Assembly (NCBI GenBank): GCA_049287525.1
Contig: JBAQFZ010000008.1
Coordinates: 23,541 to 87,540, forward strand
Reading direction: 5' to 3'
Source of the DNA: Halobacteriota archaeon
GTDB lineage: Archaea; Halobacteriota; Syntropharchaeia; Alkanophagales; Methanospirareceae
DNA length: 64,000 nt
Every line of letters starts with the position of its first letter. The stretch's first letter is position 1. Under the pieces are notes generated by a model, which did no database searches, was not told where the DNA came from, and saw only the letters and a program-made list of their open reading frames with translations. Below are positions 18,221 through 43,833 of this stretch, one piece after another. Position numbers and translations under genes: made by a program.

Positions 18221-18354
18221 TATTTGTATAGCTACATAAAAAACCACAAGATTAACACAAGAAATTATAATTATTTTGGAATAAAGTAGCCAATAGTGTA
18301 CTGAAACTATGTTAATTTTATTCTTTTTCTCGTGAAAATCTGTGTTAATCTGTG
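18221..18354. mobile_element. MITE-like repeat copy 1 (short variant lacking the hairpin module)
   Basis: Shares gtatttgtatagctacataaaaaaccac[a/g]agat.cacaagattaacacaagaaatt... and the right inverted end tgtgttaatctgtg with the copies at 26.1, 29.6 and 43.6 kb. Confidence 0.6.
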
Positions 18355-18416
18355 TCTGTCTATAATTTATTTTCTCTTCTGTTTATTCAAAGACAATTAG
18401 CCAGCCGGATAAAACT

Positions 18417-19382
18417 TCAAACGATAACCTCCTCCCCCAATCTCGTGTCATCCAGCTCCTTAGTCCACCTGTTGAAATCCAGCCAGAGTATTACAGTAAT
18501 ACAGGTGAGGATAAGAAGATAAATGGCAACGACTATAAGCGTATCCAGCATTAACCGTTGATAAACTCTGTTTATCTCAGGTTTAAGCCCTTTTATATCA
18601 CCGAGCGCATTATCACGGTGTTTCTCATATAATTTCTCCGCGTGCTCATACGAATCCCGTGCTTTTATTATCTCCATAAATGCAGCGCCAAATAAGCTTG
18701 AAGAGGCGCTGCGGGCATTGTCAAGATACGACCTCGATGCCATTACATATTCTGATGCCCGTTCCATATCCCGTTTATACATCCGTTCATCACGTAGCGC
18801 CTCGAACTTCATCCGGCTTGCGTCACTGGGCATGCCACCCTCTCCGTATGAAGCCGAACTTATATACTCGTATTCTATCTTCACCTTTGTCACGTTCGTA
18901 TTGGTAGCCATGTCCTTGAAGTATCTTCCTTCGTCCCGGTAAAATCGCTTAAGTGCACGCTCGGCAAGCATTGGTATTCCATTCCTTTCCGCGGTGGCGT
19001 AGCTATTGAGTTTGATTATGGATGTGTTAATCGAATCAGCCATTTTTAGTGCTTCTTTATGGTCCGCGGGACTTTGACTCTCGCTTAACGGTGCCATCTT
19101 TTCAAACTTATCAACAATTGTGAGGAAGATATTTACCCACTCTTTTGTCGTATAGGTAACCTCTGAACCTTCCATACTCTGAATCACCGCCTGTACCTCT
19201 GCCTTTGCAAGTGATAACTCGTCATAGTCGTCAAATACCCCCGACTTGTTCAGCGATATTATATTCTGAAGCAGGTCCCTCTTCAGCGCGTCTGAGCCTG
19301 CCGCAGGTGTGGCGAAAGCCAGGAGGTTGATTATAATTATGGTTATAATCAGGACTAAGGCAATCAAACTTCGCGAGTTCAT
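18417..19382 (-). CDS. secreted/membrane-anchored helical protein (signal peptide + C-terminal TM)
   Basis: 321 aa; N-terminal hydrophobic signal and C-terminal TM segment LIVVAIYLLILTCITVILWL. Divergently transcribed from the FtsZ-like operon. Confidence 0.5.
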   Translation of the reverse strand: MNSRSLIALVLIITIIIINLLAFATPAAGSDALKRDLLQNIISLNKSGVFDDYDELSLAKAEVQAVIQSMEGSEVTYTTKEWVNIFLTIVDKFEKMAPLSESQSPADHKEALKMADSINTSIIKLNSYATAERNGIPMLAERALKRFYRDEGRYFKDMATNTNVTKVKIEYEYISSASYGEGGMPSDASRMKFEALRDERMYKRDMERASEYVMASRSYLDNARSASSSLFGAAFMEIIKARDSYEHAEKLYEKHRDNALGDIKGLKPEINRVYQRLMLDTLIVVAIYLLILTCITVILWLDFNRWTKELDDTRLGEEVIV

Positions 19383-19541
19383 GAGTATGGTGTTGTAATA
19401 TTATACTTGGCTATACTATGTAGCAGGTGCAATAAAAAATCCCGTTACTTACATACAGGCAAAAGGCAAAAAGCGAGCGAATTATTTATAGCAGTTTCCT
19501 ACCATAATAGAACTACCATATAAATCCTTTAGCTGCACAAT

Positions 19542-20492
19542 ATGACTATGCGATACCTGCTTGTTGGACTGGGGAATGCCGGAATTGCAATTCTTAACGC
19601 TCTACTGGAGTACAAAGAGATAAAGAGTGCAAAGCCAAAGCCGGTTATTATCCTGCTACGGTCCGAGAGCGAGGGAGTGGATAAGATAGCAACTGCGTTA
19701 GAGCGAGCAAAAGGCGGGGGCGTTGATTTCGCGCTTCTCTTCACGGGATTTAGCAATAGTAATAATAGTAATATATCAGCAGCGGAAATATTGAATGATC
19801 AAAAGATAAAGACGCTTTTTATTGGCATTCTGCCTGCGAATAGAAGAGAAGAGCAGGAGGAGATAGTAAGTGTATATTCGTCACTGGAGAAGCTAAAAGC
19901 GCATGTGAAATCATTTATAATCGTGGATAACCAGCGTATAGCGCACCATCCAAACTACAAGGAGTTTTATCCACGGTATAACAGGTATATCGCCTCGTGC
20001 CTCGTGGACATCCTCGCAGGGATTCGTGTAAAGGACAGGGCAAACGTGTCCGGGGCGCAATCTGCCCTCCTTCCCATAGAAGAAGTGGTAAAGGCACTGT
20101 CTTTCAATGCTGAGCCGGGCTATGTGGCGGTATCGCGCAGTTCAGAACTTACAAAGGGCTTGATGGGTTATATCGTCCCGTTTACAAGGCACAAACCGCT
20201 TGACCTCAGAACGCTGCTACGGGTTTCGCTGGAGAAGTTCAGCGTTTCTGATGCACCGATAGTCTGTGATAAGAGCGTTTGTTTCCTGCGTGTGCCGGAT
20301 TATTATGTCAGGAGTGGGGGTGTGGATAAGAAATTAATAGAGGAATTCTTGCTCACGTATTCAAAAGAGAGCCATCTCGCGGTATCCGTTACGGGGCGAA
20401 ACACGGTGGCGATCACTAATTTGTTCGTATATAAATTTGAGCAACTGGGTAGATTACGAGATATAAGGGGAGTTGCGCATGAGGCGATATAG
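19542..20492 (+). CDS. divergent FtsZ/tubulin-like protein with degenerate GTP-binding T4 loop
   Basis: YLLVGLGNAGIAILNALLEY aligns to the FtsZ T1 region IKVIGVGGGGNNAV. DFALLFTGFSNSNNSNISAAEIL aligns to the T4 region (GGGTGTG replaced). KTLFIGILPANRREE is cf. VTKPFxFEG. SFIIVDNQRIA is cf. FtsZ TIPNDKLL. Confidence 0.5.
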   Translation: MTMRYLLVGLGNAGIAILNALLEYKEIKSAKPKPVIILLRSESEGVDKIATALERAKGGGVDFALLFTGFSNSNNSNISAAEILNDQKIKTLFIGILPANRREEQEEIVSVYSSLEKLKAHVKSFIIVDNQRIAHHPNYKEFYPRYNRYIASCLVDILAGIRVKDRANVSGAQSALLPIEEVVKALSFNAEPGYVAVSRSSELTKGLMGYIVPFTRHKPLDLRTLLRVSLEKFSVSDAPIVCDKSVCFLRVPDYYVRSGGVDKKLIEEFLLTYSKESHLAVSVTGRNTVAITNLFVYKFEQLGRLRDIRGVAHEAI

Positions 20493-21810
20493 TGTAGTAC
20501 TTGCTCCGCTGGTGCTTTTAGGTTTGATTGCACTTGGTATCTTCATCTTCTTCAAGGGCGGGTCGGACCTTGCATTAATAACTATTATCTTTATCTTTAT
20601 CCCTGCAATGATAGGAGCGGCATTTATGGTTCGATACCTCGTTACGGTACGGAAAGGAAGTCTAAGGGAGAAGGTGATGGTGCGGGACGTGGAGGGTGTA
20701 GCGAACCGGTATGTAGAACAGATGCGGATTCTACACGATTTCGAGGATAAATACGGTATAAGCACGAGCGAATTCCGGCGCGAGCTGGAGAAGGTAAAAG
20801 AAGGTTTAGCCGAACTGGGCTGTGAGGTAAATGGAAGGGTAAGGATGGACCGTGTGAAGCAAAGGAGCGTGGTCTTTGCCGATGTTGAATGGGTGACTAA
20901 GATGTTCGATGGTATAAAAGAGCGGCATGAAGTCGTACTTTATTCCCGGATGATAGAAAGAAGCAGGGCTTATCTTGATGGGCTAAGAGCACTTGAAGAC
21001 GCAGGCTATGATGGTATCCGGGGCAACATAGAGCAGATAGAATCAAAGATAGTGGAGGACGAGAACCTGAAGAAGGATTCACTTGAACTCTCCATCTTCA
21101 TGAATGAGCTGGATTCACGCATAGAAGAAGCGCTGAGAACCTGTTTGCATGATGCACACGGTTTAGAGGCGGAAGGTCGGGAGACGGCAAATGCGGACAC
21201 CGCCCGAGTCAGGACTGATATGAAGCTGGTCGAACATAGCATAGAGCGAGGAAACTACGAGAGCGCATCAAAAGTATTGAATAGCGTGATTGGGAGATTG
21301 AGCCGGATGCTGGCGGATGTGTTTGAACAATATAAGACAGACACGCTTGCGCTGACTGCCGTAGTTGTTGACATGCTGGGAAAGGAAGAAGAAGAGGTGG
21401 AGGTGGCAGTGGTGGATAGGGAGAAGGATAAGAATATGAATAAGAATAAGAAAGAGATAGAAGCGCTGCGGGAACACATCGAGAAGTGCATGACGCCTTC
21501 AGAGATGCGAAAGCTGCGGGCGTATGGAGATGCGCTCATATTAAAAGCAATAACCGCTTTAGAGGCGACTTATAATAAGATATTCACGATTGAAGAGCAA
21601 ATACTGCGGGAGAACCCGGCAACGGAATTGTATCCCGTGGAATACTGGACCAGGGATAAGATAGGCGAGATAGAGGAACTCAGGTCAATGCCAAAATCGG
21701 AAGTCAGTGATTTTGTTCGCAGATACCGTCTCTTAGCATCCGATGCTATTTCGCGGTTGGTGTATGATTCCGAGAGCTTAAGAAGGCTATCTCGCAAGCA
21801 GCAGGCATAA
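20479..21810 (+). CDS. membrane-anchored coiled-coil protein (2 N-terminal TM helices + long helical cytoplasmic domain)
   Basis: An ATG at 20479 has a GGGGAG 7 nt upstream (the track uses TTG at 20473). It overlaps the stop of the upstream gene. The sequence is E/R/K-rich with heptad periodicity. Confidence 0.55.
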   Translation: MRRYSVVLAPLVLLGLIALGIFIFFKGGSDLALITIIFIFIPAMIGAAFMVRYLVTVRKGSLREKVMVRDVEGVANRYVEQMRILHDFEDKYGISTSEFRRELEKVKEGLAELGCEVNGRVRMDRVKQRSVVFADVEWVTKMFDGIKERHEVVLYSRMIERSRAYLDGLRALEDAGYDGIRGNIEQIESKIVEDENLKKDSLELSIFMNELDSRIEEALRTCLHDAHGLEAEGRETANADTARVRTDMKLVEHSIERGNYESASKVLNSVIGRLSRMLADVFEQYKTDTLALTAVVVDMLGKEEEEVEVAVVDREKDKNMNKNKKEIEALREHIEKCMTPSEMRKLRAYGDALILKAITALEATYNKIFTIEEQILRENPATELYPVEYWTRDKIGEIEELRSMPKSEVSDFVRRYRLLASDAISRLVYDSESLRRLSRKQQA

Positions 21811-21874
21811 TTTATTTTATATCACATACGCGGAAACTTAATAACTACCAGGAATAAATATCTTTAAAGAGGTC

Positions 21875-22315
21875 TTGAGTATGGAACCGTTGAGTATAGG
21901 AATACTTATTGTTGCCCTGTTGATCGCCGTGGAAGTGGTATTGATGCTGGTAAAATTAAAGGTGGACAAGATGCTGCTTCTTATGCCCGCCACCGGTGTG
22001 ATATGCGCCACTATCGCGTTTGTATTGAATGAATACCGTGATAAAATACCGTTAGCTGTGTCTGCCGCTCTTGTTGTGATATACGTTATGCTTGCCGTGG
22101 GCGTAGTATTGGGACTACTTGGAATTTTGGTATGGCTAAAAGGGGAGCAGGAAGCGAAGAAGATAATCAGCACGGCAAAAGGAATAGATAGCGCAGTTGC
22201 CCGAATTGACAGCGATATGAAGGGAAGCGAGCTGGAATTAGAGCATTTCGACGACGAGATGAGCGCGATAAAGACGAAGATGGCGGATTACGAGACGAAA
22301 GATAAGGAGGTCTGA
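21875..22315 (+). CDS. small membrane protein (3 TM) with C-terminal coiled-coil
   Basis: 146 aa; hydrophobic segments followed by KGSELELEHFDDEMSAIKTKMADYE. Confidence 0.5.
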   Translation: MSMEPLSIGILIVALLIAVEVVLMLVKLKVDKMLLLMPATGVICATIAFVLNEYRDKIPLAVSAALVVIYVMLAVGVVLGLLGILVWLKGEQEAKKIISTAKGIDSAVARIDSDMKGSELELEHFDDEMSAIKTKMADYETKDKEV

Positions 22316-22326
22316 TCGCGAGAGAG

Positions 22327-25017
22327 ATGGAGAAGGGTGAGGATACGGTAAACCGGATAGTAATAGGAATCGGTGGGCAGGGAGGCAGTATTGTAAACAA
22401 CCTGTTAAGGATGCTCAAGACAAAGACCGGGAAGGTGCCGAAGAATGAGGAGTTTTTGATTATTGATACCGATCAGGCATCAGCAAATGCGTGCACCGAA
22501 GTAGAAGAGCGAAGGAAGATAATACTGAGCAGACCCGATACGATATTGATGAAGAACGCGAACAGATGGCTGCCGGACCCATATCTTGCGGCTGCCGGCG
22601 CGGGATGCGGACAGCACCGGATATATGGCAGGGCGATGTATAACGTGCATCGCGAGCGGATATTCAGTGCGATAGGAACAGCCGCATCGGAATTGCGTAA
22701 CCGGACTGGTGGTAAGGACTTCTTCATTCTGATGGTCTGCGCATTGGGCGGGGGGACCGGTTCGAGTATGCTGCTCGACGTGGCGATAGACATCCGGGAT
22801 TGGATTTCAAAACAGTTTGGGTCAGAACCGGTGATGTTCGGAATAGGTATTCTACCTTCGAGCAAGGAGTCCGTGCTCCCGACTGGTAATGCCCTCGGTG
22901 CACTGAAGGAGCTCCATTTCCTCATGTCACATACCGGAGACATCATAATAGACGACAAGAATTATTCTAATCCATTCAAGCTGTTCTTCCTTTTAGGTCG
23001 TGACCTTCAGGGGCAGAACCGAGATGAGGAACTGGAAAGGGCGATACCAAGGTTCCTTCTCGACCTTGGTTTCTTGCCTGGCGGGACGGTAGAGACGAAG
23101 GGCAAGTGGCTTGACCTGAACGACCTGCAGAACCGTGCAAGGGGCTACGAGAACCGGTTTGATTCCCTGGGTTATTATGAATGCGTATTCCCCAGCGATA
23201 AATTGTTCCTTTATTATGACATCGAGGATGAGATACCGGTAGTCAGGCAGCGACTGGTAGAGATAGAGGCGCGAACCGCGGATATACGCGATAAAATAGT
23301 CTTGCAGCGAGGCGAACTGGAACGGTTTGAGGGCAGGATAAGAGATGCTCAGCGAGAGATAGATAGATACGAATCGGGGGGTGGACTGCTGTCGCACGTA
23401 AATGAGGGCGCAATCCGAGATGCGAAGGCGAAACTGGAAAGAGCGAAGAAGAAGTTATCGGATTTGAAAGAAGGCGTGTTCAACCTTGAGATACGGGTAA
23501 GTGATGCGGAAGAGGAGAAGCGGGTGATGGAGCGTAAGTTAGAACGGCTTGAGGCGTTAAAGAACAAGCTGCTCCGGGAGATAACCACGCCGGCGAATAC
23601 GCGAAGTTATCACCAGATAGAGCTTTCGGAGGATGAAGTGCGCGGCTTAAAGAAGAGCAGGGAAGACCTGAAGAATCTATCGTTCTTAGAGATTATGAAT
23701 AAACTGGATAGGGCGGAGGAATATTTCCGATGGACGCATTCGCCGATAAATGAAGGGGACGTGATATTCAATCCAATGGTAAACTACCGACATGCCATCG
23801 AGAATACCATGACCTCGAAATATATAGGCATCCTGAACGATTACGGATTCCTGACGGTAGATGCGCAGGGTAATGTGGTGAACGAGGAGGAGAAGTTCGG
23901 GCATTTCATCGCGGTATTGAGCACGAGGGCGGATAATTTCGATGATGGTCGGCTTGGCGGTGGCGCGTTTAAGAGCATGGTGACGGCACGATTCGCAAAA
24001 GATGCAGACGTGTTAAAATTGGATGCGCCGGCGCGTGCACACAGTTTCGCTATATACACGCTTATGATTGGACTGCAACCCTGGGCGTCAGGTCCAGGAC
24101 TACCGCCGCGACTGCGTGAATTTGAATGGATAGAGAAGGCGTATAAAGAGAGTGAGTTCTCTAAGCTACAAAGACATCATTCATTCTTTTACGGGACTAA
24201 TAAGCCGTTCTCTATGATTACTGATATACCGTACACACCGGGTGCCGAGGATAAGAATAGGGATATGGTGACGAACTACTGGCAGAATTACGAGATAATA
24301 GAGCCCGGGGTCTTATGGGATAATGTGCCTATCATGCTTGCGCAATGCCTGAAGATGTTTGATGATCTCTTAGTCGGGCTGGATATAGCAAGCGATATAA
24401 AGAACGTGCGGGTTCCGGACCCGGAGAGCTACTCAATCGCGAACCTCACGATGCTGGTTCACGAACTGGAAACCGCAGGTAGAAGTATGGAGAAGGTGAA
24501 TCAATGGACTAAAGAAGCAGGACGTGGGTTTACACATCTGAAAGACGAACTTGACGACTTGATAGTCCGGTTAAAGGGTACGGATGCCGGGCGACCTGCG
24601 GAAGACAAAGCGGGTAAGATGCTCCGGATGATTGACGATTCTAAGCGGGACATGGAGATATTGCTGGACCGGATTGATGATATGTCAAACAGCTTCAGTA
24701 ACGAGATAGAAGCATTCGTGGAAGGGGCAAAGGACTTTATCGGTAAGATTCCCTCGGGTGAGACCACATCAAGTGTGATAAGGCAGATAACAAAAGCGGA
24801 GACGGAGATTTCAAGGATACGAGAGAGCAGTATGAAAGCGGCGAAAGGGATAAGAGAGATGAGCAGTCCTCTGGCAACGCTGTTAGCAGCATTAAAAGAG
24901 CTGAAGGGAATAGTGGAACCAGAAGGAGAAGTCGAGGCGGGAGTAATGGAAGTGCATGGCGGTAAGGAGATGGAACTGCCTGATTTATCTACGGACATAA
25001 GGAGGAAAGAAGATTGA
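22327..25017 (+). CDS. FtsZ/tubulin-superfamily GTPase fused to ~600-aa coiled-coil extension
   Basis: T1 is IVIGIGGQGGSIVN. T2-like is LIIDTDQASA (cf. FtsZ NTDAQAL). T3 is AAGAGCGQH. T4 is the canonical ALGGGTGSS. IIIDDKNYSNP is cf. FtsZ IPNDKL. A long E/R/K-rich helical region follows. Confidence 0.7.
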   Translation: MEKGEDTVNRIVIGIGGQGGSIVNNLLRMLKTKTGKVPKNEEFLIIDTDQASANACTEVEERRKIILSRPDTILMKNANRWLPDPYLAAAGAGCGQHRIYGRAMYNVHRERIFSAIGTAASELRNRTGGKDFFILMVCALGGGTGSSMLLDVAIDIRDWISKQFGSEPVMFGIGILPSSKESVLPTGNALGALKELHFLMSHTGDIIIDDKNYSNPFKLFFLLGRDLQGQNRDEELERAIPRFLLDLGFLPGGTVETKGKWLDLNDLQNRARGYENRFDSLGYYECVFPSDKLFLYYDIEDEIPVVRQRLVEIEARTADIRDKIVLQRGELERFEGRIRDAQREIDRYESGGGLLSHVNEGAIRDAKAKLERAKKKLSDLKEGVFNLEIRVSDAEEEKRVMERKLERLEALKNKLLREITTPANTRSYHQIELSEDEVRGLKKSREDLKNLSFLEIMNKLDRAEEYFRWTHSPINEGDVIFNPMVNYRHAIENTMTSKYIGILNDYGFLTVDAQGNVVNEEEKFGHFIAVLSTRADNFDDGRLGGGAFKSMVTARFAKDADVLKLDAPARAHSFAIYTLMIGLQPWASGPGLPPRLREFEWIEKAYKESEFSKLQRHHSFFYGTNKPFSMITDIPYTPGAEDKNRDMVTNYWQNYEIIEPGVLWDNVPIMLAQCLKMFDDLLVGLDIASDIKNVRVPDPESYSIANLTMLVHELETAGRSMEKVNQWTKEAGRGFTHLKDELDDLIVRLKGTDAGRPAEDKAGKMLRMIDDSKRDMEILLDRIDDMSNSFSNEIEAFVEGAKDFIGKIPSGETTSSVIRQITKAETEISRIRESSMKAAKGIREMSSPLATLLAALKELKGIVEPEGEVEAGVMEVHGGKEMELPDLSTDIRRKED

Positions 25018-26096
25018 GGCGTATATTATCTTATAGCTCGCTTGCCGTTCTGGCACCTGTACTTGTACTTGTAGTTCTGTTTTCATGCGTGGGAATGAGT
25101 ATTGCTGCTGCTGCGGTTCAGGACGTGCTGAAGCTGAACGAAGGGCAGTCGTATGTCCGCAATTTAGAGCCGAGCAGGGTAGCGAGAATTAGCTATGACG
25201 CGTTTTTGAATAGCAATCAATTTGAAGGGGATACGCTTGAATTTCATATCTTCGTGGATAAGGTAGAGAAGGCACCCATTTTAGATGATTATGTCTTAAA
25301 ACTGGAGACAAATCTGGAGAATCCCGAATGGAAATTCGGCGATGACCTCTATCACTCTGCCGAGGTGATTGTATGGGAGGGCGAAGAAGCGCACACGCGC
25401 ATGGTTCCCGAGATTATACTATCTGGTGAGGTTCCCGCACCGATAATAACCATAAAAGAGCCGGGGTTCAACTACGATATTGATGGTATAGGGCAGGATA
25501 AGGTATATGTCAAATTAACTGTCGGGACGGTAAAGGAAAAGGAGGGGGCGACATTGAAGACCATCATCCAGAAACTGGAGCCGACAATGACGTTCTTCTC
25601 CACGAATGAGGGGATACAGAGCGCGAAGAGCGAGATGGATGAGAACCTGGAAGTGGCAAAAGGCAAGATTGGGGAGACGGAATTAGGAAAGGATATAGAA
25701 GAGCTCTACAAAAATGGGCATCCGGGTTGGGCATCTAAATTATCAACCGATTATAAGGCGCTATCGGTAGTGGCAGAGCCACCGCCAATTATGCTTTATG
25801 CCCTCGCCGCGATGATACTCGGGTTGATATTAGGTGCGGGATTCGTGTATGTGTATGTCTCGCGAGGCGGCGGCAAAGGTGTGGACGTGAGTGAGATTTC
25901 GTCAGAGCTGGATGATACTTCAGGTAGAATAGCAGAGAAGTCGGGTGCAATCAATGCGATTTCAACGAGGTTTGCGCGCAGCGCAGATGAAGAGCAGAGG
26001 GGCGCGGCGAGGGAGTTGCTAAAGATAAGAGCGAGTTTGAATGAGCTCGCGAATGAACTGAGGGCAATTGCAGATAGGATAAGGGGTTCGAGATAA
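25014..26096 (+). CDS. signal-peptide protein with ~230-aa extracellular domain, one TM and C-terminal cytoplasmic coiled-coil
   Basis: A TTG start overlaps the stop of the upstream gene (tTGA), with GGAGG 8 nt upstream. A TM helix (LYALAAMILGLILGAGFVYVYV) is followed by a helical tail. Confidence 0.55.
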   Translation: MRRILSYSSLAVLAPVLVLVVLFSCVGMSIAAAAVQDVLKLNEGQSYVRNLEPSRVARISYDAFLNSNQFEGDTLEFHIFVDKVEKAPILDDYVLKLETNLENPEWKFGDDLYHSAEVIVWEGEEAHTRMVPEIILSGEVPAPIITIKEPGFNYDIDGIGQDKVYVKLTVGTVKEKEGATLKTIIQKLEPTMTFFSTNEGIQSAKSEMDENLEVAKGKIGETELGKDIEELYKNGHPGWASKLSTDYKALSVVAEPPPIMLYALAAMILGLILGAGFVYVYVSRGGGKGVDVSEISSELDDTSGRIAEKSGAINAISTRFARSADEEQRGAARELLKIRASLNELANELRAIADRIRGSR

Positions 26097-26126: not shown

Positions 26127-26333
26127 GTATTTGTATAGCTACATAAAAAAACCACGAGATTTCACAAGATTAACACAAGAAATTGAGATTATTAGCGGAT
26201 AAAGTAGCCAATAGTATACTGAAACTATGTTAATATCATTCTTTTTCTCGTGAAATAAACCCATTCTGGGTTTTAGAAGAAACCCGTAGGGTTTCCTGTG
26301 GACGTGGGCAGAGCCCACGAGTGTTAATCAGTG
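26127..26333. mobile_element. MITE-like repeat copy 2 (full, with two hairpins)
   Basis: Left module ccacgagatttcacaagattaacacaagaaattga; hairpins gaaacccgtagggtttc and cgtgggcagagcccacg; right inverted end gtgttaatcagtg. Confidence 0.6.
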
Positions 26334-26424
26334 TCTATAAAGACGCGGGCTTATCTGGTGCTTAGAATATGGTATTTCGCAAGAGCCAAGAGCTATACAC
26401 CTATGTTAGTTAAGTTCGTCCTCA

Positions 26425-27190: not shown

Positions 27191-29476
27191 ATGGAAACAA
27201 AAAAGAGAGGAGGAACGATAACAGGTATTGCTCTGGTAGCGATTATGGTCGCTTCAGTTATGCTCGCAATGGTCGCGAGCACCGCAGCGTACAGCACAGG
27301 CGGAAAATACAATATCATTAACAACTCAACAACACCACCTGCACAACAAGTACTGACAGGACAGGATCTGAAATTCATAAAGGGTACTGATGCTCTTGAG
27401 TGGACATCGGCACCGACAGTAATGCAGTATGGATCTAATGGTAACCAAGAACATACGTATCCATCGGCAGTGGGAGACGGTGGGGACTTTTACATCGACA
27501 ACGTGGACTGGGGTACGTCAGGTACATTTTATGTGAACGGTGGTGCGACCGTAAGTGCTGCCTACTGCGCACAGCTTTCTGTCAGTGACCCAAAAATACC
27601 GCTGCAGCTAAAAGTAGGTGATAAGATAGTGACGTCACTTGCCAAGGGTACGCCAGGATTTCACACAGATGTTGGAGGTAGAAATCTGTTCCCCGAGGAT
27701 GGTGTAGACCTCGTGATTATGGGTCCCAACGGGCAGATAACAACAAAGAACGGCCAGAATTTTAAAGGCATAAATGTGAGTACATTGACCGATTATACAA
27801 GTGTGAACTTTATTAACACCACAGGCTGGGACGTAGGGCATTACACCTTCCAGGTGAAGACCAAACCGGAAAACGCATGTGGCCTGGATACACAGAGCAC
27901 ACTGCGGGAGATGAACATAATAAAAGCTGCGGTAACAATAACAGCGGAGCCGACAGAAGTAGCGGAACTCACAACCGTGAAACTCACAGTAACTGGTGTT
28001 GCCGGTACGCCGATAAATGTACTAGAAGACACTTTAAGTCCGCATGCTTATTTCCCTGCAGGGCTTAATGACAACCAGGGACCAAAGAATAACAATTTCA
28101 CTGATACAATAGACAGTGACGGCACGCGGACCTACGCAGTGGAGTTCAACGATACCGGTGCATACACAATTAAAGTGACGGATTTAAACGATCTATCAGG
28201 AGATACATATGACACCGTTGACATTACCGTTACAGAGAAGGGAGTTACCTTTGACGTGCCAAGCACAGTAGTTATCGGGCAGCGGTTTACGATAAAAGGG
28301 ACTGCAAATACAGGCAATATGGTTACGGTTGCCGTGGATGACGAGGTGGTGTTGAAACTGAATAATATCGTAATAGACGAGAACAACGAATTCTCGGAGG
28401 AGATAGATACAAGCGCAGATGCAGCACCCGGGGCATTCAAGCTTCCAGGTTCTGTGAGGTTGAAGGCGTACATTGACTATCCAGGGGGCACTGGTCCGGT
28501 ACTCCAAGGCATAACAGACGATGGCTCGTTTGCGATATTAATGACAAAAGGCGAATTAACGGCTGAACTGTCAACAAAAAGCGTAGCGAAGGGCGATGAT
28601 TTCACAATCATCGGTAAGGCAAAAGGCTCAAAGAACGTGAATATATTGATAGTCGCACCAAAGGGTTTCAGTGGTTCAAACATAGAAACAAACGGTAAGG
28701 AGATGTATTACACATCAACGTCTGTCACAACTACCGATGATAGTTTCTACAAGAAGATCACCGTGAACGATGACGTGAACTCGGGCAAATATCTCGTGAT
28801 GATACTCAGCGCGGGAAGCGACGACAAATGGGGAAAGAGCGGTTACGATACACTTTATAACCCAAGTAAGCCAACGGATACTAATACCGCTTTAGGTCAG
28901 TATACATTAAGCACCAGGACACAGGAAGGGATGTTGGAGATAGTAAAAGATATGAGTGCTTTAAGCGATGACCTCCTGTGGATAGGGCTCGTAAACGTGG
29001 AATCGCCGTATGTGATTCTTAACCCAATAGCAGAGGTGAACATTGGAGAACCTATGGAAGTAACAGGAACTACAAACAGAAAGGATGGATATACCATAGT
29101 TGTCACAGCTAAAGGACCGACAGAGCTAACTCCGGCGACCGTACCGGTACATAACAGTACGTTCAACGCAACGTTAGACACTTCAGATGCTAAGGTAGGC
29201 GTGTACGTAGTGACGGCAGACGATGGTGATGGTAATACAGATACAGAGCAGGTGAGCATAGGAGGAGCAGCAGTACCGGCTGAGACGCCACTAACATCGC
29301 CAGCAGCAGAAACACCAATGCCAACAGCAGAAGCACCAACGCCAGCAGCAGAAACACCAATGCCAACAGAAGAAGCACCAACACCAACACCAAAACCAGT
29401 ACCAGGATTCGTAGGTGTGTTCGCCATTGCAGGCTTGTTAGCGGTTGCCTACCTATTACTGAGGAGAAGGAAGTAG
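27191..29476 (+). CDS. PGF-CTERM surface (S-layer-like) glycoprotein
   Basis: Signal peptide; 700-aa beta-rich ectodomain; Thr/Pro-rich linker AETPMPTAEAPTPAAETPMPTEEAPTPTPKP; PGF motif + TM + RRRK at the C-terminus (archaeosortase A sorting signal). Confidence 0.8.
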   Translation: METKKRGGTITGIALVAIMVASVMLAMVASTAAYSTGGKYNIINNSTTPPAQQVLTGQDLKFIKGTDALEWTSAPTVMQYGSNGNQEHTYPSAVGDGGDFYIDNVDWGTSGTFYVNGGATVSAAYCAQLSVSDPKIPLQLKVGDKIVTSLAKGTPGFHTDVGGRNLFPEDGVDLVIMGPNGQITTKNGQNFKGINVSTLTDYTSVNFINTTGWDVGHYTFQVKTKPENACGLDTQSTLREMNIIKAAVTITAEPTEVAELTTVKLTVTGVAGTPINVLEDTLSPHAYFPAGLNDNQGPKNNNFTDTIDSDGTRTYAVEFNDTGAYTIKVTDLNDLSGDTYDTVDITVTEKGVTFDVPSTVVIGQRFTIKGTANTGNMVTVAVDDEVVLKLNNIVIDENNEFSEEIDTSADAAPGAFKLPGSVRLKAYIDYPGGTGPVLQGITDDGSFAILMTKGELTAELSTKSVAKGDDFTIIGKAKGSKNVNILIVAPKGFSGSNIETNGKEMYYTSTSVTTTDDSFYKKITVNDDVNSGKYLVMILSAGSDDKWGKSGYDTLYNPSKPTDTNTALGQYTLSTRTQEGMLEIVKDMSALSDDLLWIGLVNVESPYVILNPIAEVNIGEPMEVTGTTNRKDGYTIVVTAKGPTELTPATVPVHNSTFNATLDTSDAKVGVYVVTADDGDGNTDTEQVSIGGAAVPAETPLTSPAAETPMPTAEAPTPAAETPMPTEEAPTPTPKPVPGFVGVFAIAGLLAVAYLLLRRRK

Positions 29477-29556: not shown

Positions 29557-29899
29557 TGTATTTTTATAGAACCGCGAGATTACACAAGATTAACACAGAG
29601 GGAAAAAGTGGAAGATACGACTGAAAAGTGGCTTTATAGGGACTTAACACAAAAGATTATCGGTGTAGCGATGGAAGTGCATCGTGAATTAGGCACTGGC
29701 TTTCTTGAATATGTTTATGAGGAGGCTTTATGTTATGAGCTAAATTTGGGAGAGATTCATTTTGAAAGACAGAAAGAACTCGATAAGTTAGAGATGAAAA
29801 GAAGAATCTTGTGAAACAAACCCTTTCAGGGTTTTAGAAGAAACCCGTAGGGTTTCCTGTGGACGTGGGCAGAGCCCACGATGTGTAATCTTGTGGTTA
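29553..29899. mobile_element. MITE-like repeat copy 4 carrying a truncated GxxExxY gene between its left end and hairpin module
   Basis: Left end accgcgagattacacaagattaacacagag; right end hairpins plus the inverted end gatgtgtaatcttgtggtta. The internal ~220 bp differ from the other copies and encode the GxxExxY fragment. Confidence 0.55.
29608..29814 (+). pseudogene. GxxExxY family protein, C-terminally truncated remnant
   Basis: A GTG start with GAGGG upstream gives ...IIGVAMEVHRELGTGFLEYVYEEALCYELNLGEIHFERQKEL, then terminates early relative to ~125-aa family members. Confidence 0.4.
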
Positions 29900-30014
29900 T
29901 AAAAGGAGCTAAACAAATACGAGCTTTTTATTCACTAATAAATATTATTCCTGCTCTTACAAGCGAAAAAAAGGATTATATTATGCTGCTAAGTTCATAT
30001 AATTAATTAAATTA

Positions 30015-30086
30015 GCCCCAGTGTGGTAATGGAAATCCATTGGGCCTGCGGAGCCTAATATCCGGGTTCGATTCCCGGCTGGGGCA
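30015..30086 (+). tRNA. tRNA-Arg (anticodon GCG)
   Basis: Manual cloverleaf: 7-bp acceptor GCCCCAG/CTGGGGC, D-stem TGGT/TCCA, anticodon stem TGGGC/GCCTA, loop CTGCGGA, T-arm CCGGG-TTCGATT-CCCGG, discriminator A; no encoded CCA. Confidence 0.8.
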
Positions 30087-30107
30087 TTCATCTCAATTCA
30101 ACTTAAT

Positions 30108-30887
30108 TCAAATCAATTCAATTTTGAACACGCGCGCGAAATTGCGCTCTATTGCTGCGTCCACGGACTCGAACTCGAGCTTCTTTTGCCGTGCTATCTC
30201 TTCGTACACCACCTTTACGTGCTGTGGCACATTCCTTTCTTCCGCTACATCAGGAGAGAGATAAGGTGCATCTGTCTCTGTAAACAAATAAGAAAGCGGT
30301 ATTCTATTCGCGACCTTCTTCATGCTCTTGCTTCGCACTATTGATGCAGGCAGCGAGATGTAATAACCTTCTTCACATATCAGTGCCGCAAGCTGCGGCT
30401 TGCCCGTGAAGCAATGAAAAACCGCTTTCGGGATGTCCGCATCCGAAACGAGCTTCAAACCGTCCTCTATCGCTTCGCTGCCCGTACCCCGCAGATGAAG
30501 CACAACCGGTAAATCGAGCTCCTTCGCAAGCTCAAGAAACTCTTCAAATACTGCTCTTGTACGCTTTATCTTTAACGGGTCGCGTACCCGGTGGTAGTCA
30601 AGCCCTATTTCGCCTATGCCCACTATTCTACTTTTGTTCTTGCTTATGAACTCTTGATAATCCTCTATCTCATGGGCTGTTCGGTCTGCCACGTGTATCG
30701 GATGTAGCCCAAGCGAAACGAATACGAAGCCGGTATGCAATTCTGCAAGTTCTAACGCCTTCTTTGCATCTTCCGGGTCCACGCCACTTGTGACCACGCC
30801 CTTTAATTCCTGCTTGCCCGCCTCTATCACCTGCTCACGGTCCGTGTCGTAATCCGCAAACGTCAGATGGCAGTGTATGTCTATCAT
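30108..30887 (-). CDS. tatD: TatD family metal-dependent hydrolase/DNase
   Basis: MIDIHCHL N-terminus; conserved His/Glu/Asp metal ligands; 259 aa. Confidence 0.85.
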   Translation of the reverse strand: MIDIHCHLTFADYDTDREQVIEAGKQELKGVVTSGVDPEDAKKALELAELHTGFVFVSLGLHPIHVADRTAHEIEDYQEFISKNKSRIVGIGEIGLDYHRVRDPLKIKRTRAVFEEFLELAKELDLPVVLHLRGTGSEAIEDGLKLVSDADIPKAVFHCFTGKPQLAALICEEGYYISLPASIVRSKSMKKVANRIPLSYLFTETDAPYLSPDVAEERNVPQHVKVVYEEIARQKKLEFESVDAAIERNFARVFKIELI

Positions 30888-30932
30888 TTTAATCTCCTTA
30901 AACTGATTAGGAGTTTTATAATGATAAACAAG

Positions 30933-30968
30933 ATACAGGATACAGGATACAGGATGCAGGATACAGGA
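30933..30968. repeat. heptamer array (CAGGATR)x5, left flank of four-helix-bundle gene
   Basis: caggatacaggatacaggatgcaggatacaggagg; its final unit supplies a GGAGG RBS 7 nt before the ATG. Confidence 0.6.
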
Positions 30969-30973: not shown

Positions 30974-31354
30974 TTGATGGGTATTCAGACGTATAATGAC
31001 CTGGAAATCTATCAGTTAAGTCATGAGCTGGCAGTTGAAATACATAAGCTGAGCCTTAGCCTCCCGAAAATCGAGTTATACGAAGAAGGGAGCCAATTGA
31101 GGAGATCAGCTAAGGCAATCCCGGTGAATATCGTTGAGGGATTTGGCCGCCGCCGATACAAAAATGATTTTATCCGATTCCTCACTTTTGCTCTGGCATC
31201 CTGCGACGAAACAAAAGAGCATCTAAAAATACTGCGTGAGACCGAAGCTCTCACTGATAATGATATTTTTGATAACTTTATACAGAAGTACGAAGAATTA
31301 GGGCGAAAAATCTACACTTTCATTAAAGCTGTGGAATCTGGTCATAAATCATAG
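30974..31354 (+). CDS. four-helix-bundle protein (family often found in 23S rRNA intervening sequences)
   Basis: DLEIYQLSHELAVEIHKLSLSLPKIELYEEGSQLRRSAKAIPVNIVEGFGRR is a typical signature. ATG at 30977 (track lists TTG at 30974). Confidence 0.65.
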   Translation: MMGIQTYNDLEIYQLSHELAVEIHKLSLSLPKIELYEEGSQLRRSAKAIPVNIVEGFGRRRYKNDFIRFLTFALASCDETKEHLKILRETEALTDNDIFDNFIQKYEELGRKIYTFIKAVESGHKS

Positions 31355-31400
31355 TCATGTATCTTGCATCCTGCATCTTGCATCTTGCATCTTGCATCCC
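31350..31400. repeat. inverted heptamer array (GCATCYT)n, right flank of cassette
   Basis: tcatgtatcttgcatcctgcatcttgcatcttgcatcttgcatcc; it is the reverse complement of CARGATG units. Confidence 0.6.
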
Positions 31401-31420
31401 AGCAGCCAAACATCCATAAA

Positions 31421-32440
31421 ATGAGATACGTAACCTTCTCCCGGAATGTATTCATACCGGTAACGAACGTATGCCGGAATGCCTGTGCGTACTGTGTGTA
31501 CCGTGCTCGCAGTCCCGACGCCGCTTATTTAGTGCGTAAGGCGGATTTTTTCGCACTCGTGAATAGAACAAAACTAGAAGCAACCGAAGCGCTTTTTACG
31601 GCAGGCGAGAAGCCCGAACTCGCCAACCCCGGGTTTTTCACGTGGCTTCATAATGCTACCGGCTGCTCTACCCTTGTCGAATACACGAAAGAGCTGTGTA
31701 AACTTGCGATTACGCATGGATTACTGCCTCATTGTAATCTGGGCGTATTGAGCGCGGACGAACTCGAAGCGTTACGAGACGTGAATGCCTCTATGGGCTT
31801 GATGCTCGAAACCACGGCAGAGCTCGATGCGCATAAGAACTCGCCGGGCAAAGTGCCGGAAGAGAGATTGAAGATGATTGCAGAAGCAGGAAAGCTTAAG
31901 ATTCCGTTCACTACTGGCTTGTTGATTGGCATAGGCGAGACGCCAGAGGACCGCATCCGTTCTCTGGAAGCTATTAAGTCGTTACATGAGATATACGGAC
32001 ATATCCAGGAAGTTATTATCCAGCCCTTCGTGCCCAAACCGTTCACGCAGATGGCAAACACGGGCTCGCCTAGCTTTGAGGCATTGAAAGAAGCTGTACG
32101 TGCGGCGAGAAGGATATTGCCAGCGGAAATCGCGATTCAGGTGCCCCCTAATTTGACCTCGCCACGTGAATTAATAGAACTTGGTGCTTCGGACCTGGGT
32201 GGCATTTCAGAGCGGACTATTGACTATATAAATCCCGAATCGCCATGGCCTCGTGAGGACGAGCTCAGGCAGCTAGTTTATCCGTTTTTACTGCGAGAAA
32301 GATTGCCGATATATCCCGGCTTTATCAAAAAGGGCTGGTATAGTGAGGAGATACGTCCTTTGATAGAGCGATATGCGGGTGAGGACGGGTTGAGAAGAAT
32401 CCATAATTTCATTAAAGATGTGGAATTTGGTCATACATAG
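31421..32440 (+). CDS. cofG: 7,8-didemethyl-8-hydroxy-5-deazariboflavin (FO) synthase subunit 1, radical SAM
   Basis: MRYVTFSRNVFIPVTNVCRNACAYCVY carries the CxxxCxxC cluster motif. The track ORF start at 31364 reads through the upstream repeat array and is rejected. Confidence 0.85.
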   Translation: MRYVTFSRNVFIPVTNVCRNACAYCVYRARSPDAAYLVRKADFFALVNRTKLEATEALFTAGEKPELANPGFFTWLHNATGCSTLVEYTKELCKLAITHGLLPHCNLGVLSADELEALRDVNASMGLMLETTAELDAHKNSPGKVPEERLKMIAEAGKLKIPFTTGLLIGIGETPEDRIRSLEAIKSLHEIYGHIQEVIIQPFVPKPFTQMANTGSPSFEALKEAVRAARRILPAEIAIQVPPNLTSPRELIELGASDLGGISERTIDYINPESPWPREDELRQLVYPFLLRERLPIYPGFIKKGWYSEEIRPLIERYAGEDGLRRIHNFIKDVEFGHT

Positions 32441-32478
32441 ATCATAGTCCTGCATCCGGCATCTTGCATCCTGCATCC
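32441..32478. repeat. second copy of the inverted heptamer array after cofG
   Basis: atcatagtcctgcatccggcatcttgcatcctgcatcc is near-identical to 31350-31400. The preceding ~45 nt (ttcattaaagatgtggaatttggtcata) duplicate the 3' end of the four-helix-bundle gene. Confidence 0.6.
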
Positions 32479-32517
32479 TAACGGCTATACAAATACAATT
32501 AGCTATATTTATCATTC

Positions 32518-37527: not shown

Positions 37528-37537
37528 AATGAATGAA

Positions 37538-37610
37538 TGGACCGGTCGGGATTTGAACCCGATGCCTCTCGCACGCCAAGCGAGTGATCTTCCAACTGAT
37601 CTACCGGCCC
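37538..37610 (-). tRNA. tRNA-Ala (anticodon GGC)
   Basis: Reverse complement GGGCCGGTAGATCAGTTGGAAGATCACTCGCTTGGCGTGCGAGAGGCATCGGGTTCAAATCCCGACCGGTCCA. G3:U70 Ala identity pair present; anticodon loop TTGGCGT; no encoded CCA. Confidence 0.8.
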
Positions 37611-37701
37611 GTGATTATTAATACTGTTTTTTCCCGGGTATATAAATTTAAATTTCTTTTTATAGCCTTTCCTTGAAGTACTCATTATTACATATATAAA
37701 C

Positions 37702-38511: not shown

Positions 38512-38529
38512 AGGAGATATTGAATAACG

Positions 38530-40026: not shown

Positions 40027-40056
40027 TACATATAGAAATTAATTGTAAGGGCAGAA

Positions 40057-40884: not shown

Positions 40885-41324
40885 AATTGGATGATTACGA
40901 AACATACATGGAACTCACGCGGGTAATCCATGAGATGGAGATGGATGAGTTTGTGGATGCCGTGATCGTTGAAGGCGTCCACGATAAGGCGGCATTGCGG
41001 GAAATGGGGGTCACGAAGGAGATAGCGATGTGCTCTTCGGGTCCTTACTCGTATGCCGGGTTCGTTGATTACCTGACGGGTAGATACAGGCGCATTACCA
41101 TTCTTACTGACTATGATCGAGCAGGGAAGAGGCTAAACAAGAAACTGACAACTCGACTGGAGCGGGAGGGCGTAAAGGTAGAGAAGCGATACCGGGATAA
41201 GATAGGGATGATACTGGTACTCCGGGGGTTTCATGAGATAGAATCCATGACTCCTCTCAAAAGGAGAGCTTCTGCCTGGCTCAAAACTTATGAGTTCTTT
41301 TTGCACCTTCGAGATCCGCGATAG
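40869..41324 (+). CDS. small Toprim-domain protein
   Basis: VIVEGVHDKAAL (Toprim E) and ILTDYDRAGKRL (DxD) motifs; 151 aa. Confidence 0.6.
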   Translation: MYLAVKLDDYETYMELTRVIHEMEMDEFVDAVIVEGVHDKAALREMGVTKEIAMCSSGPYSYAGFVDYLTGRYRRITILTDYDRAGKRLNKKLTTRLEREGVKVEKRYRDKIGMILVLRGFHEIESMTPLKRRASAWLKTYEFFLHLRDPR

Positions 41325-41481
41325 GGGGAAAGATTTTATTGATTACATTTTCCATTATTAATTTCAATCTCGTGATTGCTGCTGAATTGGTTATAAATGC
41401 CGCTGGCTGGACTGTATCACATGTTAAATGGCTGGGCATGTCCTGAAAGTCCTTTTAACCTCCCGGATGCAACAATTGATG

Positions 41482-42540
41482 TTATGTTTCCGATACCTCC
41501 TCAATCCCCAATCGTGTTAGGAGTGTAGAAAATAGCTCCTGTTTAAAGTTCGCATATGCCACTTTATTCGGCACGACAATAGCGAGTTTACGCTCTGAAT
41601 ATTCGGGATACGCCTCCTTGAACACATGTTTTATCCCTCCTATCCATCTCGGTAGCTCACTGGTTACGAATACCACTGGCTGCTCTCTCCATTCTCTAAC
41701 GTCATATCTTGACAATTTATCTTTCACCATCAGATGAAGCGTATCTCTCGCCGCGGATACATCTCCGGTAAGAGCTATAAAGTCCTCTTCCATAGTGAAC
41801 CCGCTGAAATAGCCGCTTACGGTCTTCAATTCTTCGTTTGTGAATTTAGACCACTCTGCAAGTCCTTCTTCCCGCGCTTTTGCTTCTTCGTGCGATTGCG
41901 CGATAATCACCCCTATTTGCGTTTCCAGCTCTTTTGTCATGGGCATCTTATACAGCTCCTTCTCTCTAAACGCTACTAACTTAGCTGTGGCAGTCCTTAG
42001 TTCCTCGTCGCTTTGATGATACAGCCGTAAGAATTCATGCCTTGGCTTTCTTTGCCCATAAACACAGATATTCCTGGCGATGAACTCTGTCTCTAAAGTC
42101 TGAAAGACCTCAGGTGAAAACATATCGCTCATATCTGCTTTTATGAGTTCATATTGCGTGAAACCCGGAATTCCGTGTATCCCTATCTTCAACAGTAGTT
42201 CTATCATTGTTAGCGTGGCATTATTCCCCGCTTCTACTATCTGCGCTAATTTCGGTGGCTCTGCTAAAAAGCGTGATGCAAGCTCCTCGAATGTCTTTTC
42301 ATGCCCCGCTGGACAAATGTACTCGTCATAAGGTCCTGTTCCTAAAATCCGCTTCCGCCTCAATGATTTTAATAAGCCCATGCACTCCCGCTCTTTCCCC
42401 CGTAATGCTGCGAAGTTTCTCGTGAGCGCTTCTTCCGAGGCATACTCCTTCAGTAAATGGACCAATCCCAGTAGTGTTCTGGCATCCTCGTCTCTCTCCG
42501 TTACACTTAAGACCAAATTCTTATATTCTTCTGGTTTCAT
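41482..42540 (-). CDS. conserved hypothetical protein
   Basis: 352 aa soluble ORF with coding-like composition; no family recognised. Confidence 0.45.
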   Translation of the reverse strand: MKPEEYKNLVLSVTERDEDARTLLGLVHLLKEYASEEALTRNFAALRGKERECMGLLKSLRRKRILGTGPYDEYICPAGHEKTFEELASRFLAEPPKLAQIVEAGNNATLTMIELLLKIGIHGIPGFTQYELIKADMSDMFSPEVFQTLETEFIARNICVYGQRKPRHEFLRLYHQSDEELRTATAKLVAFREKELYKMPMTKELETQIGVIIAQSHEEAKAREEGLAEWSKFTNEELKTVSGYFSGFTMEEDFIALTGDVSAARDTLHLMVKDKLSRYDVREWREQPVVFVTSELPRWIGGIKHVFKEAYPEYSERKLAIVVPNKVAYANFKQELFSTLLTRLGIEEVSET

Positions 42541-42556
42541 ATTCTCTCTCTCCTAT

Positions 42557-43504
42557 TTATCCACACAATAACCTATCCACAAGCCATTCCGCATCAAACT
42601 TCTGCAGGTCTTCGTAGCCCTGCCCCGTGCCCAGGAATATTATGGGCTTAGAAGTGGCATGAGCAATGGAAATAGCCGCACCGCCTTTTATATCTATGTC
42701 TAACTTGGTTAGTATCGAGGCATCTATGCCTATGATTTCATCGAATCGCTTTGCTCTTTCTACAGCATCGTTCCCCGCAACCGCTTCATCCACAAATATC
42801 ACCATGTCCGGCTCCGTTACACGGCATATCTTCTTTAACTGCTCCATGAGATTCACAGAGGTGTGCATTCGCCCCGCGGTATCCGCCAGAACTACATCTA
42901 CTCTATTTGCTTTCGCATATTTCACTGCATCATAAACAACCGCGGTCGGGTCAGCGCCATACTGATGTTTTATCACCTTTATGCCCAAATTGGACGCATG
43001 AAGCTCTATCTGTTCAGTCGCACCCGCTCTGTAAGTATCCGCAGAAGCAATAACCACCGAATGCCCGGTAGAAAGCAACTTCTTCGCTACCTTCGCGATA
43101 GTTGTCGTCTTCCCCGTGCCATTCACACCGACGAACGCGATTTTTACCGGCTTTTCACTATTTGCCACGAACTCATCAAAATCAAGCTTTCCCGCGGAGA
43201 GGAGGTCTAACAACGCATTCCTTATCGCGGTACTCACTAATTCACCCGTGTCGGTGCCCCATTTCACACGCTTCTTCTCCAGTTCCCTCTTCACACCTGA
43301 AATCAACTCTTCCACCACAGGAAATGCCGCGTCACTTTCCAGTAACGCCATTTCTAACTCTTCTAGAGGTGTTTTCAGGTCATTCTCATCTAAAACCGTC
43401 TCACCACCTAATGTCGCCTTACCCTTATCTATTATTTTCTCCTTTATTCTCTCCGCTACCGTTTTAGTAAAGTTCTGTAGCCTGTTTTGCAGCTTCTCAA
43501 ACAT
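42557..43504 (-). CDS. ftsY: signal recognition particle receptor FtsY
   Basis: SRP GTPase motifs GVNGTGKTTTIAKVA, DTAGR and TKLD. Confidence 0.9.
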   Translation of the reverse strand: MFEKLQNRLQNFTKTVAERIKEKIIDKGKATLGGETVLDENDLKTPLEELEMALLESDAAFPVVEELISGVKRELEKKRVKWGTDTGELVSTAIRNALLDLLSAGKLDFDEFVANSEKPVKIAFVGVNGTGKTTTIAKVAKKLLSTGHSVVIASADTYRAGATEQIELHASNLGIKVIKHQYGADPTAVVYDAVKYAKANRVDVVLADTAGRMHTSVNLMEQLKKICRVTEPDMVIFVDEAVAGNDAVERAKRFDEIIGIDASILTKLDIDIKGGAAISIAHATSKPIIFLGTGQGYEDLQKFDAEWLVDRLLCG

Positions 43505-43620
43505 CGCTTCTCTCTTTCTCTCTCTCTTCGCCCCTGCGGATAAATATTACAAGTGGATAATAAAAGAGAAGCGATAGCTTGTGTTAAACCGGATTTAACT
43601 ATAATATTACATTATTACGC

Positions 43621-43833
43621 GTATTTGTATAGCTGATGTAAAAACCACGAGATTTCACAAGATTAACACAAGAAATTGAAATTAATAATGGATAACGTAA
43701 TCAATAAAGCACTGAAATTTGGTTACTATTATTATTATTCTCTCGTGAAATAAACCCATTCTGGGTTTTAGAAGAAACCCGTAGGGTTTCCTGTGGACGT
43801 GGGCAGAGCCCACGATGTATAATCTTGTGGTTA
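43621..43833. mobile_element. MITE-like repeat copy 3 (full, with two hairpins)
   Basis: gtatttgtatagctgatgtaaaaaccacgagatttcacaagattaacacaagaaattgaa ... gaaacccgtagggtttc ... cgtgggcagagcccacgatgtataatcttgtggtta. Confidence 0.6.

Follow-up and report, generated by a model that had tools for sequence, protein, structure and literature searches.

A family of miniature inverted-repeat elements in ANME-1 archaea with arms derived from a GxxExxY nuclease cassette

Background

Miniature inverted-repeat transposable elements (MITEs) are short DNA transposons that encode no transposase. Those described from prokaryotes, such as the Correia (NEMIS) elements of Neisseria and the SM elements of Sulfolobus, are 100-400 bp long, carry terminal inverted repeats (TIRs), are flanked by target site duplications (TSDs) of fixed length and occupy intergenic sites in tens of copies per genome. 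Here we describe a family that shares these traits, represented by four copies in a stretch of 64,000 nucleotides (the window) from contig JBAQFZ010000008.1, part of a metagenome-assembled genome (MAG) labelled 'Halobacteriota archaeon'. It departs from the described MITEs in three respects: no parent insertion sequence (IS) is known; its ends are composite, joining a 13-bp terminal repeat to three direct units of about 10-11 nt; and its arms come from the flanks of a gene for a GxxExxY nuclease rather than from a transposase-encoding IS.

Two other kinds of mobile element invite comparison. In mobile insertion cassettes, such as MIC231 of Bacillus cereus, IS-like inverted ends surround a passenger other than a transposase gene, and mobilisation in trans is presumed. 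The same layout is found in one of the window copies (c3) and, among related loci outside the window, which are designated by L-numbers, at L117 and in the cassettes of L116-L204. MIC231 has a known cognate transposase, that of IS231, whereas none is known for the ANME-1 family; furthermore, the passenger here, unlike ordinary cargo, belongs in nearly every case to one nuclease family, even in very distant hosts. The palindrome-associated elements derived from IS200/IS605 and the REP/RAYT (repetitive extragenic palindrome and its associated transposase) repeats are likewise short, hairpin-bearing, multi-copy and intergenic. They have neither TIR nor TSD, in contrast to the ANME-1 family, which has both, and the IS200/IS605 type has subterminal hairpins at both ends, whereas here hairpins occur on one side only and in this genome only.

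A third parallel is provided by the intervening sequences (IVSs) of 23S rRNA in Coxiella and Leptospira, which measure about 430 nt, are bounded by an inverted repeat of about 28 bp and contain a small decaying open reading frame (ORF); their distribution is sporadic, and they have long been suspected of transposition, their origin being unresolved (PMC4990558). The shared layout is that of a selfish element whose inverted repeat encloses a small, decay-prone ORF. The likeness with GxxExxY cassettes is one of layout: the IVS ORF encodes the four-helix-bundle protein S23p, not a PD-(D/E)XK nuclease, and IVSs lie within rRNA and are cut from the RNA by RNase III, whereas the ANME-1 elements lie between protein genes.

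Results and discussion

A dispersed family with inverted ends and 8-bp duplications

Very probably the four window copies (c1 to c4, Table 1) are members of a MITE family that occurs in ANME-1 archaea (Methanophagales), descends from a GxxExxY nuclease cassette and is mobilised in trans. The family has inverted ends, 8-bp target duplications, an AT-rich target and dispersed copies. Scanning species-representative genomes with the pattern GTATTTKTATAG-N(10-30)-CACAAGATTAACACA returned at least 115 further stretches; the 80 matches listed come from 19 assemblies, nearly all of them ANME-1/Methanophagales, and the number of loci in one MAG reaches 17. A viral origin was rejected, since none of 2.9 million viral contigs matched the same pattern.

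The usual copy is 161-162 bp long (modal length) and is bounded by a 13-bp inverted repeat, GTATTTGTATAGC on the left and GCTAAACAAwTAC on the right. From the left, the outer 13-mer is followed by about 6 nt and an A-run, by CCACGAGATTyCACAAGATTAACACAAGAA and by a variable middle of about 70 nt; the right side consists of TTCTCGTGrAAATCTGTGTAATCTTGTGGTT, an optional ATAAAAAGGA and the outer GCTAAACAAwTAC. Each arm thus combines a terminal inverted repeat of 12-13 bp with three direct CACrAGATT units of about 10-11 nt, and the arms are nearly invariant whereas the middle varies. Copies of types A and B contain no ORF, and the interior of c3 holds only a truncated nuclease pseudogene.

Evidence for insertion comes from the flanks. 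A perfect 8-bp TSD is present at 30 of 83 complete copies, with 7 of 8 positions matching at 11 more; flanks re-paired at random gave 4 perfect 8-bp matches in 1660, and offsets of 6, 7, 9 or 10 bp gave 0-1. At 74% A+T, the duplicated 8-mers exceed the background of 57%, and they follow an N-W6-N pattern in which positions 2-7 form the AT-rich core. TSDs cluster in type-A copies (38/62), the majority form. Mechanistically, a transposase supplied in trans would bind both element ends, the CACrAGATT units being putative binding sites for it, and would insert the element at AT-rich sites after cutting the target with an 8-bp stagger, whereupon gap repair would leave the 8-bp duplication.

These data also dispose of a segmental duplication of gene flanks within the window genome. 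The grouping of four copies in one orientation within 26 kb is the sole point in its favour; the sequence on either side of one copy is unrelated to that around the others, and at least 115 stretches lie at unrelated sites elsewhere, with TSDs. Dispersed copies and TSDs in other genomes refute this explanation, to which we attach practically no probability. A first-pass annotation of the window had proposed, among other options, a non-autonomous transposon, and had made that proposal depend on copies beyond duplicated gene flanks and on a recoverable TIR and TSD pattern; both were found.

Every defining feature of a MITE that could be tested is present in the family, save a known parent. The family itself is new, no description of the element having been found in the literature searched; its kind is already known, and it is noteworthy for its origin.

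Descent from a nuclease cassette

The arms of the MITE derive from a cassette whose same ends bracket a gene of about 128 amino acids (aa) for a GxxExxY nuclease of the PD-(D/E)XK type. Inside c3 lies an internally deleted pseudogene of this kind, annotated by NCBI as MFZ2070125.1, 'GxxExxY protein', which keeps positions 2-49 of the 117 of profile PF13366 together with the C-terminal KLEMKRRIL; its stop codon falls inside the first right-array unit, AATCTTGTGA. A search of 5.8 billion proteins gave as the closest homologues of this ORF almost exclusively fragments of 38-115 aa from ANME-1 or other archaea, in which the N- and C-termini are kept and the internal deletions differ (e.g. 54, 59, 71, 105 aa).

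A near-intact parent is found at L117, where the outer 12-mer and left array are followed by GAAGGG, an ATG and a gene of about 128 aa with one frameshift, the stop codon of which precedes a GC hairpin. The protein reconstructed from this locus is a full match to TIGR04256 'GxxExxY protein' (157.9 bits). In the gene-carrying forms the left array stands directly upstream of the Shine-Dalgarno (SD) sequence and start codon, while at the other end the last codons, AGA AGA ATC TTG TGA, are themselves the first right-array unit in L116, L119, L199, L201, L203 and L204. Since the codons for RRIL and the stop lie within that unit, as seen in seven related loci altogether, the right arm of the MITE is homologous to the 3' end of the gene. 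Copy c3 is an internal-deletion derivative of the cassette, and c1, c2 and c4 represent the gene-less form, amplified.

Two otherwise intact GxxExxY genes, at L116:1089-1502 and L199:1501-1899, each contain one in-frame TAG; the two positions differ by two codons (AQLLN*LK and AQL*NYLK), and both genes were read as pseudogenes. An AlphaFold2 model of the nuclease built from 13 sequences was unusable (pLDDT 42.6), and a sequence search found no relative in the PDB.

The window copies

The first-pass annotation had placed the four copies at about these positions, and reading and aligning the sites confirmed them, all on the plus strand, with corrected spans (Table 1). A repeat search of the window recovered the copies as families D11, D12, D18 and D19 (28-111 nt, 74-100% identity). 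Clusters of array units are confined to the copies within the window and arose in none of 50 window shuffles, which excludes chance as their source.

Table 1. Positions of the repeat copies and their parts in the window
Feature	Position	Strand	Details
Copy c1	18220..18370	+	canonical short form; type-A middle; without hairpins, outer right 13-mer or TSD
c1 outer 13-mer	18220-18232		
c1 left array	18244-18263		shortened
c1 right array	18327-18356		TTCTCGTGAAAATCTGTGTTAATCTGTGTC; tail decayed to about 18370
Copy c2	26127..26340	+	type-A middle
c2 outer 13-mer	26127-26139		
c2 left array	26150-26181		
c2 first right unit	26245-26255		TTCTCGTGAAA
c2 hairpins	26257-26273, 26279-26295, 26303-26319		
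c2 right array	26320-26340		variant, AGTGTTAATCAGTGTCTATAA
Copy c3	29558..29920	+	gene-remnant form
c3 outer 12-mer	29558-29569		GTATTTTTATAG; directly adjoins left array
c3 left array	29570-29599		
c3 GAGGG and GTG start	29598-29610		GAGGG Shine-Dalgarno-like
c3 GxxExxY/PDDEXK_3 pseudogene	29608..29814	+	internally deleted; PF13366 E=1.8e-14
c3 hairpins	29818-29834, 29840-29856, 29864-29880		just downstream of the pseudogene stop
c3 right array	29882-29898		
c3 outer right 13-mer	29908-29920		
Copy c4	43621..43846	+	most complete type-A copy
c4 outer 13-mer	43621-43633		
c4 left array	43643-43674		
c4 first right unit	43740-43750		
c4 three-hairpin module	43751..43815	+	65 nt; between unit 1 and units 2-3 of right array
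c4 hairpins	43752-43768, 43774-43790, 43798-43814		
c4 right array	43816-43832		
c4 outer right 13-mer	43834-43846		GCTAAACAAATAA
Solo outer 13-mer	32484..32496	-	exact copy of GTATTTGTATAGC; adjoins 7-nt tandem array; no CACrAGATT array beside it

The window copies are about 150-363 bp long and, like the usual copy, stay below the limit of about 600 bp for a MITE. A left module of GTATTT[G/T]TATAG and CACAAGATTAACACA is common to all four, as first annotated. The right end GATGTGTAATCTTGTGG, also said to be shared, is present in c3 and c4 only, c1 and c2 having the variant GTGTTAATCwGTGTCT. What had been taken for a TIR of about 15 bp is the inner repeat array; the true termini are the outer 13-mers, overlooked at that stage, and the inverted repeat is accordingly longer. 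Outside the CACrAGATT units the 13-mer GTATTTGTATAGC recurs in inverted orientation at the right ends of c3 and c4, the only window copies to keep both outer ends. The shortest copy, c1, had been regarded as partial and is instead the standard short form. The solo 13-mer on the minus strand, which could be either the remnant of an end or a coincidental match, is assigned to the family only tentatively.

All four copies are intergenic, in spacers at gene ends, in agreement with the first-pass annotation: a convergent gene pair encloses each of c1 and c2, c3 is found downstream of a PGF-CTERM protein gene and upstream of a tRNA-Arg gene, and c4 separates the 3' end of polB from the 5' end of ftsY. 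The AT-rich target preference accounts for this placement.

A local hairpin module and two unlikely alternatives

Copies c2 to c4 each contain three perfect hairpins, with a 7-bp stem and a 3-nt loop, in a 65-nt module. Two had been noted at first and do exist; the third, AAACCCnnnnGGGTTT, had been missed. They had also been presented as a feature of the element, but the window hairpins are absent from all copies outside the window in 772 kb of fetched DNA, where nothing related to them turned up beyond partial matches at L055:5811-5945 and L031:~740. The three hairpins are a local add-on of this genome's copies and not a defining feature of the family. In L031 and L117 the corresponding position, after the first and before the second right-array unit, is filled by other GC-rich hairpins, which indicates that the module represents the downstream region of a gene-carrying lineage. 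It is identical between c2 and c4 (65/65), whereas identity falls to 82% over the 131 aligned columns next to it; the c3 module matches at 62 of 65 positions. This contrast in identity suggests that gene conversion has, most likely, spread the module among the copies of the window genome.

Gene-less 'mini' elements of about 65-135 bp, consisting of a left and a right array, occur in L121, L122, L199, L201 and L212, at L055:5811-5945 and at L077:~4240-4310. They stand in tandem beside GxxExxY genes and inside one another, and the spacers are mosaics of such nested small elements; the one in L055 bears hairpins related to those of the window.

A terminator or insulator module, maintained by the host at gene 3' ends for its hairpins, was among the options first raised. 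It would accord with the location of all four copies at gene ends, with three perfect GC-rich hairpins and with their complete conservation between c2 and c4. We nevertheless consider it very unlikely: target preference explains the location without a host function, most family members lack hairpins, copies occur in both orientations relative to adjacent genes, and archaeal transcription termination relies on oligo-T tracts rather than on hairpins.

The other option, a family of small structured RNA genes with a TATA-like promoter at the left terminus and functional structure in the hairpins, appears very unlikely as well. The left terminus, GTATTTGTATAG, does resemble a TATA box and stands upstream of an SD sequence and start codon in c3 and L117; type-A middles have a lower mean minimum free energy on the plus strand (-13.1 versus -9.7 kcal/mol; the plus strand has the lower value in 52 of 64 copies), and c4 folds with z = -5.9. 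Yet folding is no weaker on the reverse strand of c4 (z = -6.7), which is how a DNA palindrome behaves, and the extra plus-strand stability of about 3.5 kcal/mol may reflect only the G/T richness of the middles, leaving a weak hint. No Rfam family matched the element, the window yielding only two tRNAs at gathering scores and c4 nothing even at E up to 1. RNAalifold found only the TIR pairing in 62 copies (-7.7 kcal/mol, one compensatory pair) and no consensus structure in 64 distinct middles (0.0 kcal/mol), and a scan of column pairs added no information. Many spurious helices arise from the G/T- and A-rich composition. The absence of the hairpins from the family at large and the TSDs, which indicate spread by insertion, argue in the same direction. 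In short, neither of these two options drew support from the analysis.

Inverted arrays around GxxExxY genes in other prokaryotes

The nuclease family is large, comprising 12,594 cluster representatives at 50% identity (E up to 0.001), and the function of its PDDEXK_3 domain is given as 'Unknown' (PMC3424549). The literature searched contained nothing on the mobility of GxxExxY/PDDEXK_3 genes. A metagenome scan by protein alignment returned at least 553 relatives, of which 80 loci were kept; most of these are 43-58% identical to the query and hence from other organisms. For the 61 loci with enough flanking sequence, an array score was defined as the best inverted match between the two flanks of the gene, with 74 windows shifted by 1300 nt as controls. 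The median score was 16, and 38 of 61 loci (62%) reached at least 15, compared with a control median of 8, a control maximum of 11 and no control (0/74) at 15 (Mann-Whitney p = 1e-17). The matched flanks are inverted arrays of two to four direct units, often with an additional unique outer segment, and the unit sequence varies by lineage, examples being CACGGATTA, CACAGAGGA, CACGAATT and CGCAGAGA. Outside ANME, 40 of 42 GxxExxY genes are intact ORFs of 121-171 aa; those of the ANME-1 clade are nearly all pseudogenes.

Many GxxExxY relatives (e.g. P0066, P0071, P0073) are about 250-290 aa long with two matched stretches and represent tandem two-domain versions of the nuclease.

These observations raise an alternative in which no DDE transposase is involved: the GxxExxY nuclease itself would recognise the CACrAGATT-type arrays and drive mobility or maintenance, serving gene-less copies in trans. 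Inverted arrays around the gene in unrelated organisms, an architecture that persists while unit sequences change between lineages, the intactness of the non-ANME genes, the gene-less mini versions beside genes, a catalytic core weakly similar to Cas4/endonuclease and the fact that no other transposase was found all fit this proposal. On the other hand, the ANME-1 gene copies are nearly all decayed, yet the MITE TSDs are fresh and perfect; co-divergence of array and protein is also expected from plain co-inheritance; and we know of no strand transfer by a hydrolytic PD-(D/E)XK nuclease. Moreover, the CACGGATGAAA arrays of L150 (3024-4270), which flank a GxxExxY gene, also bracket an unrelated 282-aa ORF (3341-4189) that has no Pfam or NCBIfam match and might, as a guess, be Rpn-like. 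Arrays of one kind around two different ORFs imply that the arrays can carry more than one kind of cargo, of which GxxExxY may be one of several. On balance we regard a nuclease-driven mechanism as rather unlikely.

In its broader form the idea is that GxxExxY genes are the working genes of very widespread, unrecognised selfish cassettes of about 0.5 kb, bounded by inverted arrays of two to four short direct repeats that the nuclease recognises, the ANME-1 MITEs being their gene-less derivatives. We offer this only tentatively, as a doubtful possibility; such a class could be kin to the ORF-bearing IVSs of 23S rRNA.

Points against a trans-mobilised MITE

Several results weigh against a trans-mobilised MITE family as we have described it. 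Some 0.77 Mb of flanking DNA yielded no autonomous partner with the same ends. None of the four window copies has an intact TSD, and no duplications were seen, by eye, beside the non-ANME cassettes. The pairs L082/L107 and L077/L074 differ at element sites, though not cleanly, with small elements nested in the spacers. Finally, a 126-bp element at L082:1042-1167 has the same outer ends without arrays. The outer 13-mer could therefore be integral to the cassette ends or be a separate transposon layer that the cassette entered once; non-ANME cassettes, too, often have a unique outer segment. As to the window itself, the missing TSDs and the divergent, decayed right ends of c1 and c2 give its copies the look of old immobile relics, which they probably are.

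Candidates for a partner or for an empty site were considered and rejected. The long end-pairs, in L077, L049, L013 and L024, all have housekeeping genes between them (e.g. those for RIO kinase, pyridine nucleotide oxidoreductase, ribosomal L15e, HisB, RFC); an end-like site in L102 adjoins a Kazal-like repeat protein; and L085/L105 do not form a filled and empty pair, the indel in L085 being unrelated. A 'long element' of about 910 bp in L039 and L042 proved to be a MITE copy split by a group II intron.

That intron has no ORF and separates the right array of the MITE copy from its outer 13-mer at L039:6745-7503 in ANME-1 GoMg2 (Rfam RF00029, 55.9 bits; RF02012, 33.9 bits). A second copy, 86% identical, occurs at L042:3581-4496 in the same MAG.

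Other features of the window

Genes near the copies encode an archaeosortase-like protein, a PGF-CTERM protein, a family-B DNA polymerase and FtsY, and the window contains a tRNA-Arg(GCG), features that identify the DNA as part of an archaeal chromosome; conserved genes of the window are 81-82% identical to those of Methanophagales MAGs. Between c1 and c2 a plus-strand gene block (19542-26096) has raised G+C (47-50%) and strongly positive GC skew, and its products include two FtsZ/tubulin-like proteins (PF00091, weak, at 19542-20492; PF13809 Tubulin_2, E=4.5e-23, within 22327-25017). The PGF-CTERM protein gene contains an in-frame 21-nt repeat (x4.7, 29299-29396) near its C-terminus, and the 10-nt repeat ATTCAACTCA (x3.6, 30086-30121) starts on the final base of tRNA-Arg(GCG).

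Three spacer tandem arrays have 7-nt units: ACAGGAT x5.9 (30928-30968), ATCTTGC x5.4 (31361-31398) and TCCTGCA x4.6 (32448-32479). The latter two lie after two neighbouring genes with similar 3' ends, namely 30974-31354 and the radical-SAM gene at 31364-32440, and the third is followed by the solo 13-mer of Table 1. Further along, the region 52551-59417 holds two paralogous blocks of about 3.6-3.9 kb, 89-94% identical and only 38-40% G+C, with periodic internal repeats of 69, 207 and 351 nt; they probably contain genes for repeat-rich surface proteins.

Conclusions

The methane-oxidising ANME-1 archaea are uncultured and known only from fragmented MAGs. In such genomes a recurrent repeat of about 160 bp breaks assemblies, yields spurious small ORFs that are annotated as fragments of a 'GxxExxY protein' and marks sites of recent rearrangement. 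The element also ties a large protein family of unassigned function to a fixed DNA context, the short repeats in inverted arrays that surround 62% of the genes sampled but none of the control windows, and by virtue of this context the function of GxxExxY proteins becomes directly testable, as binding or cutting of their own flanking arrays. Ordinary in kind, the element shows how the large and uncharacterised GxxExxY family sits in genomes.

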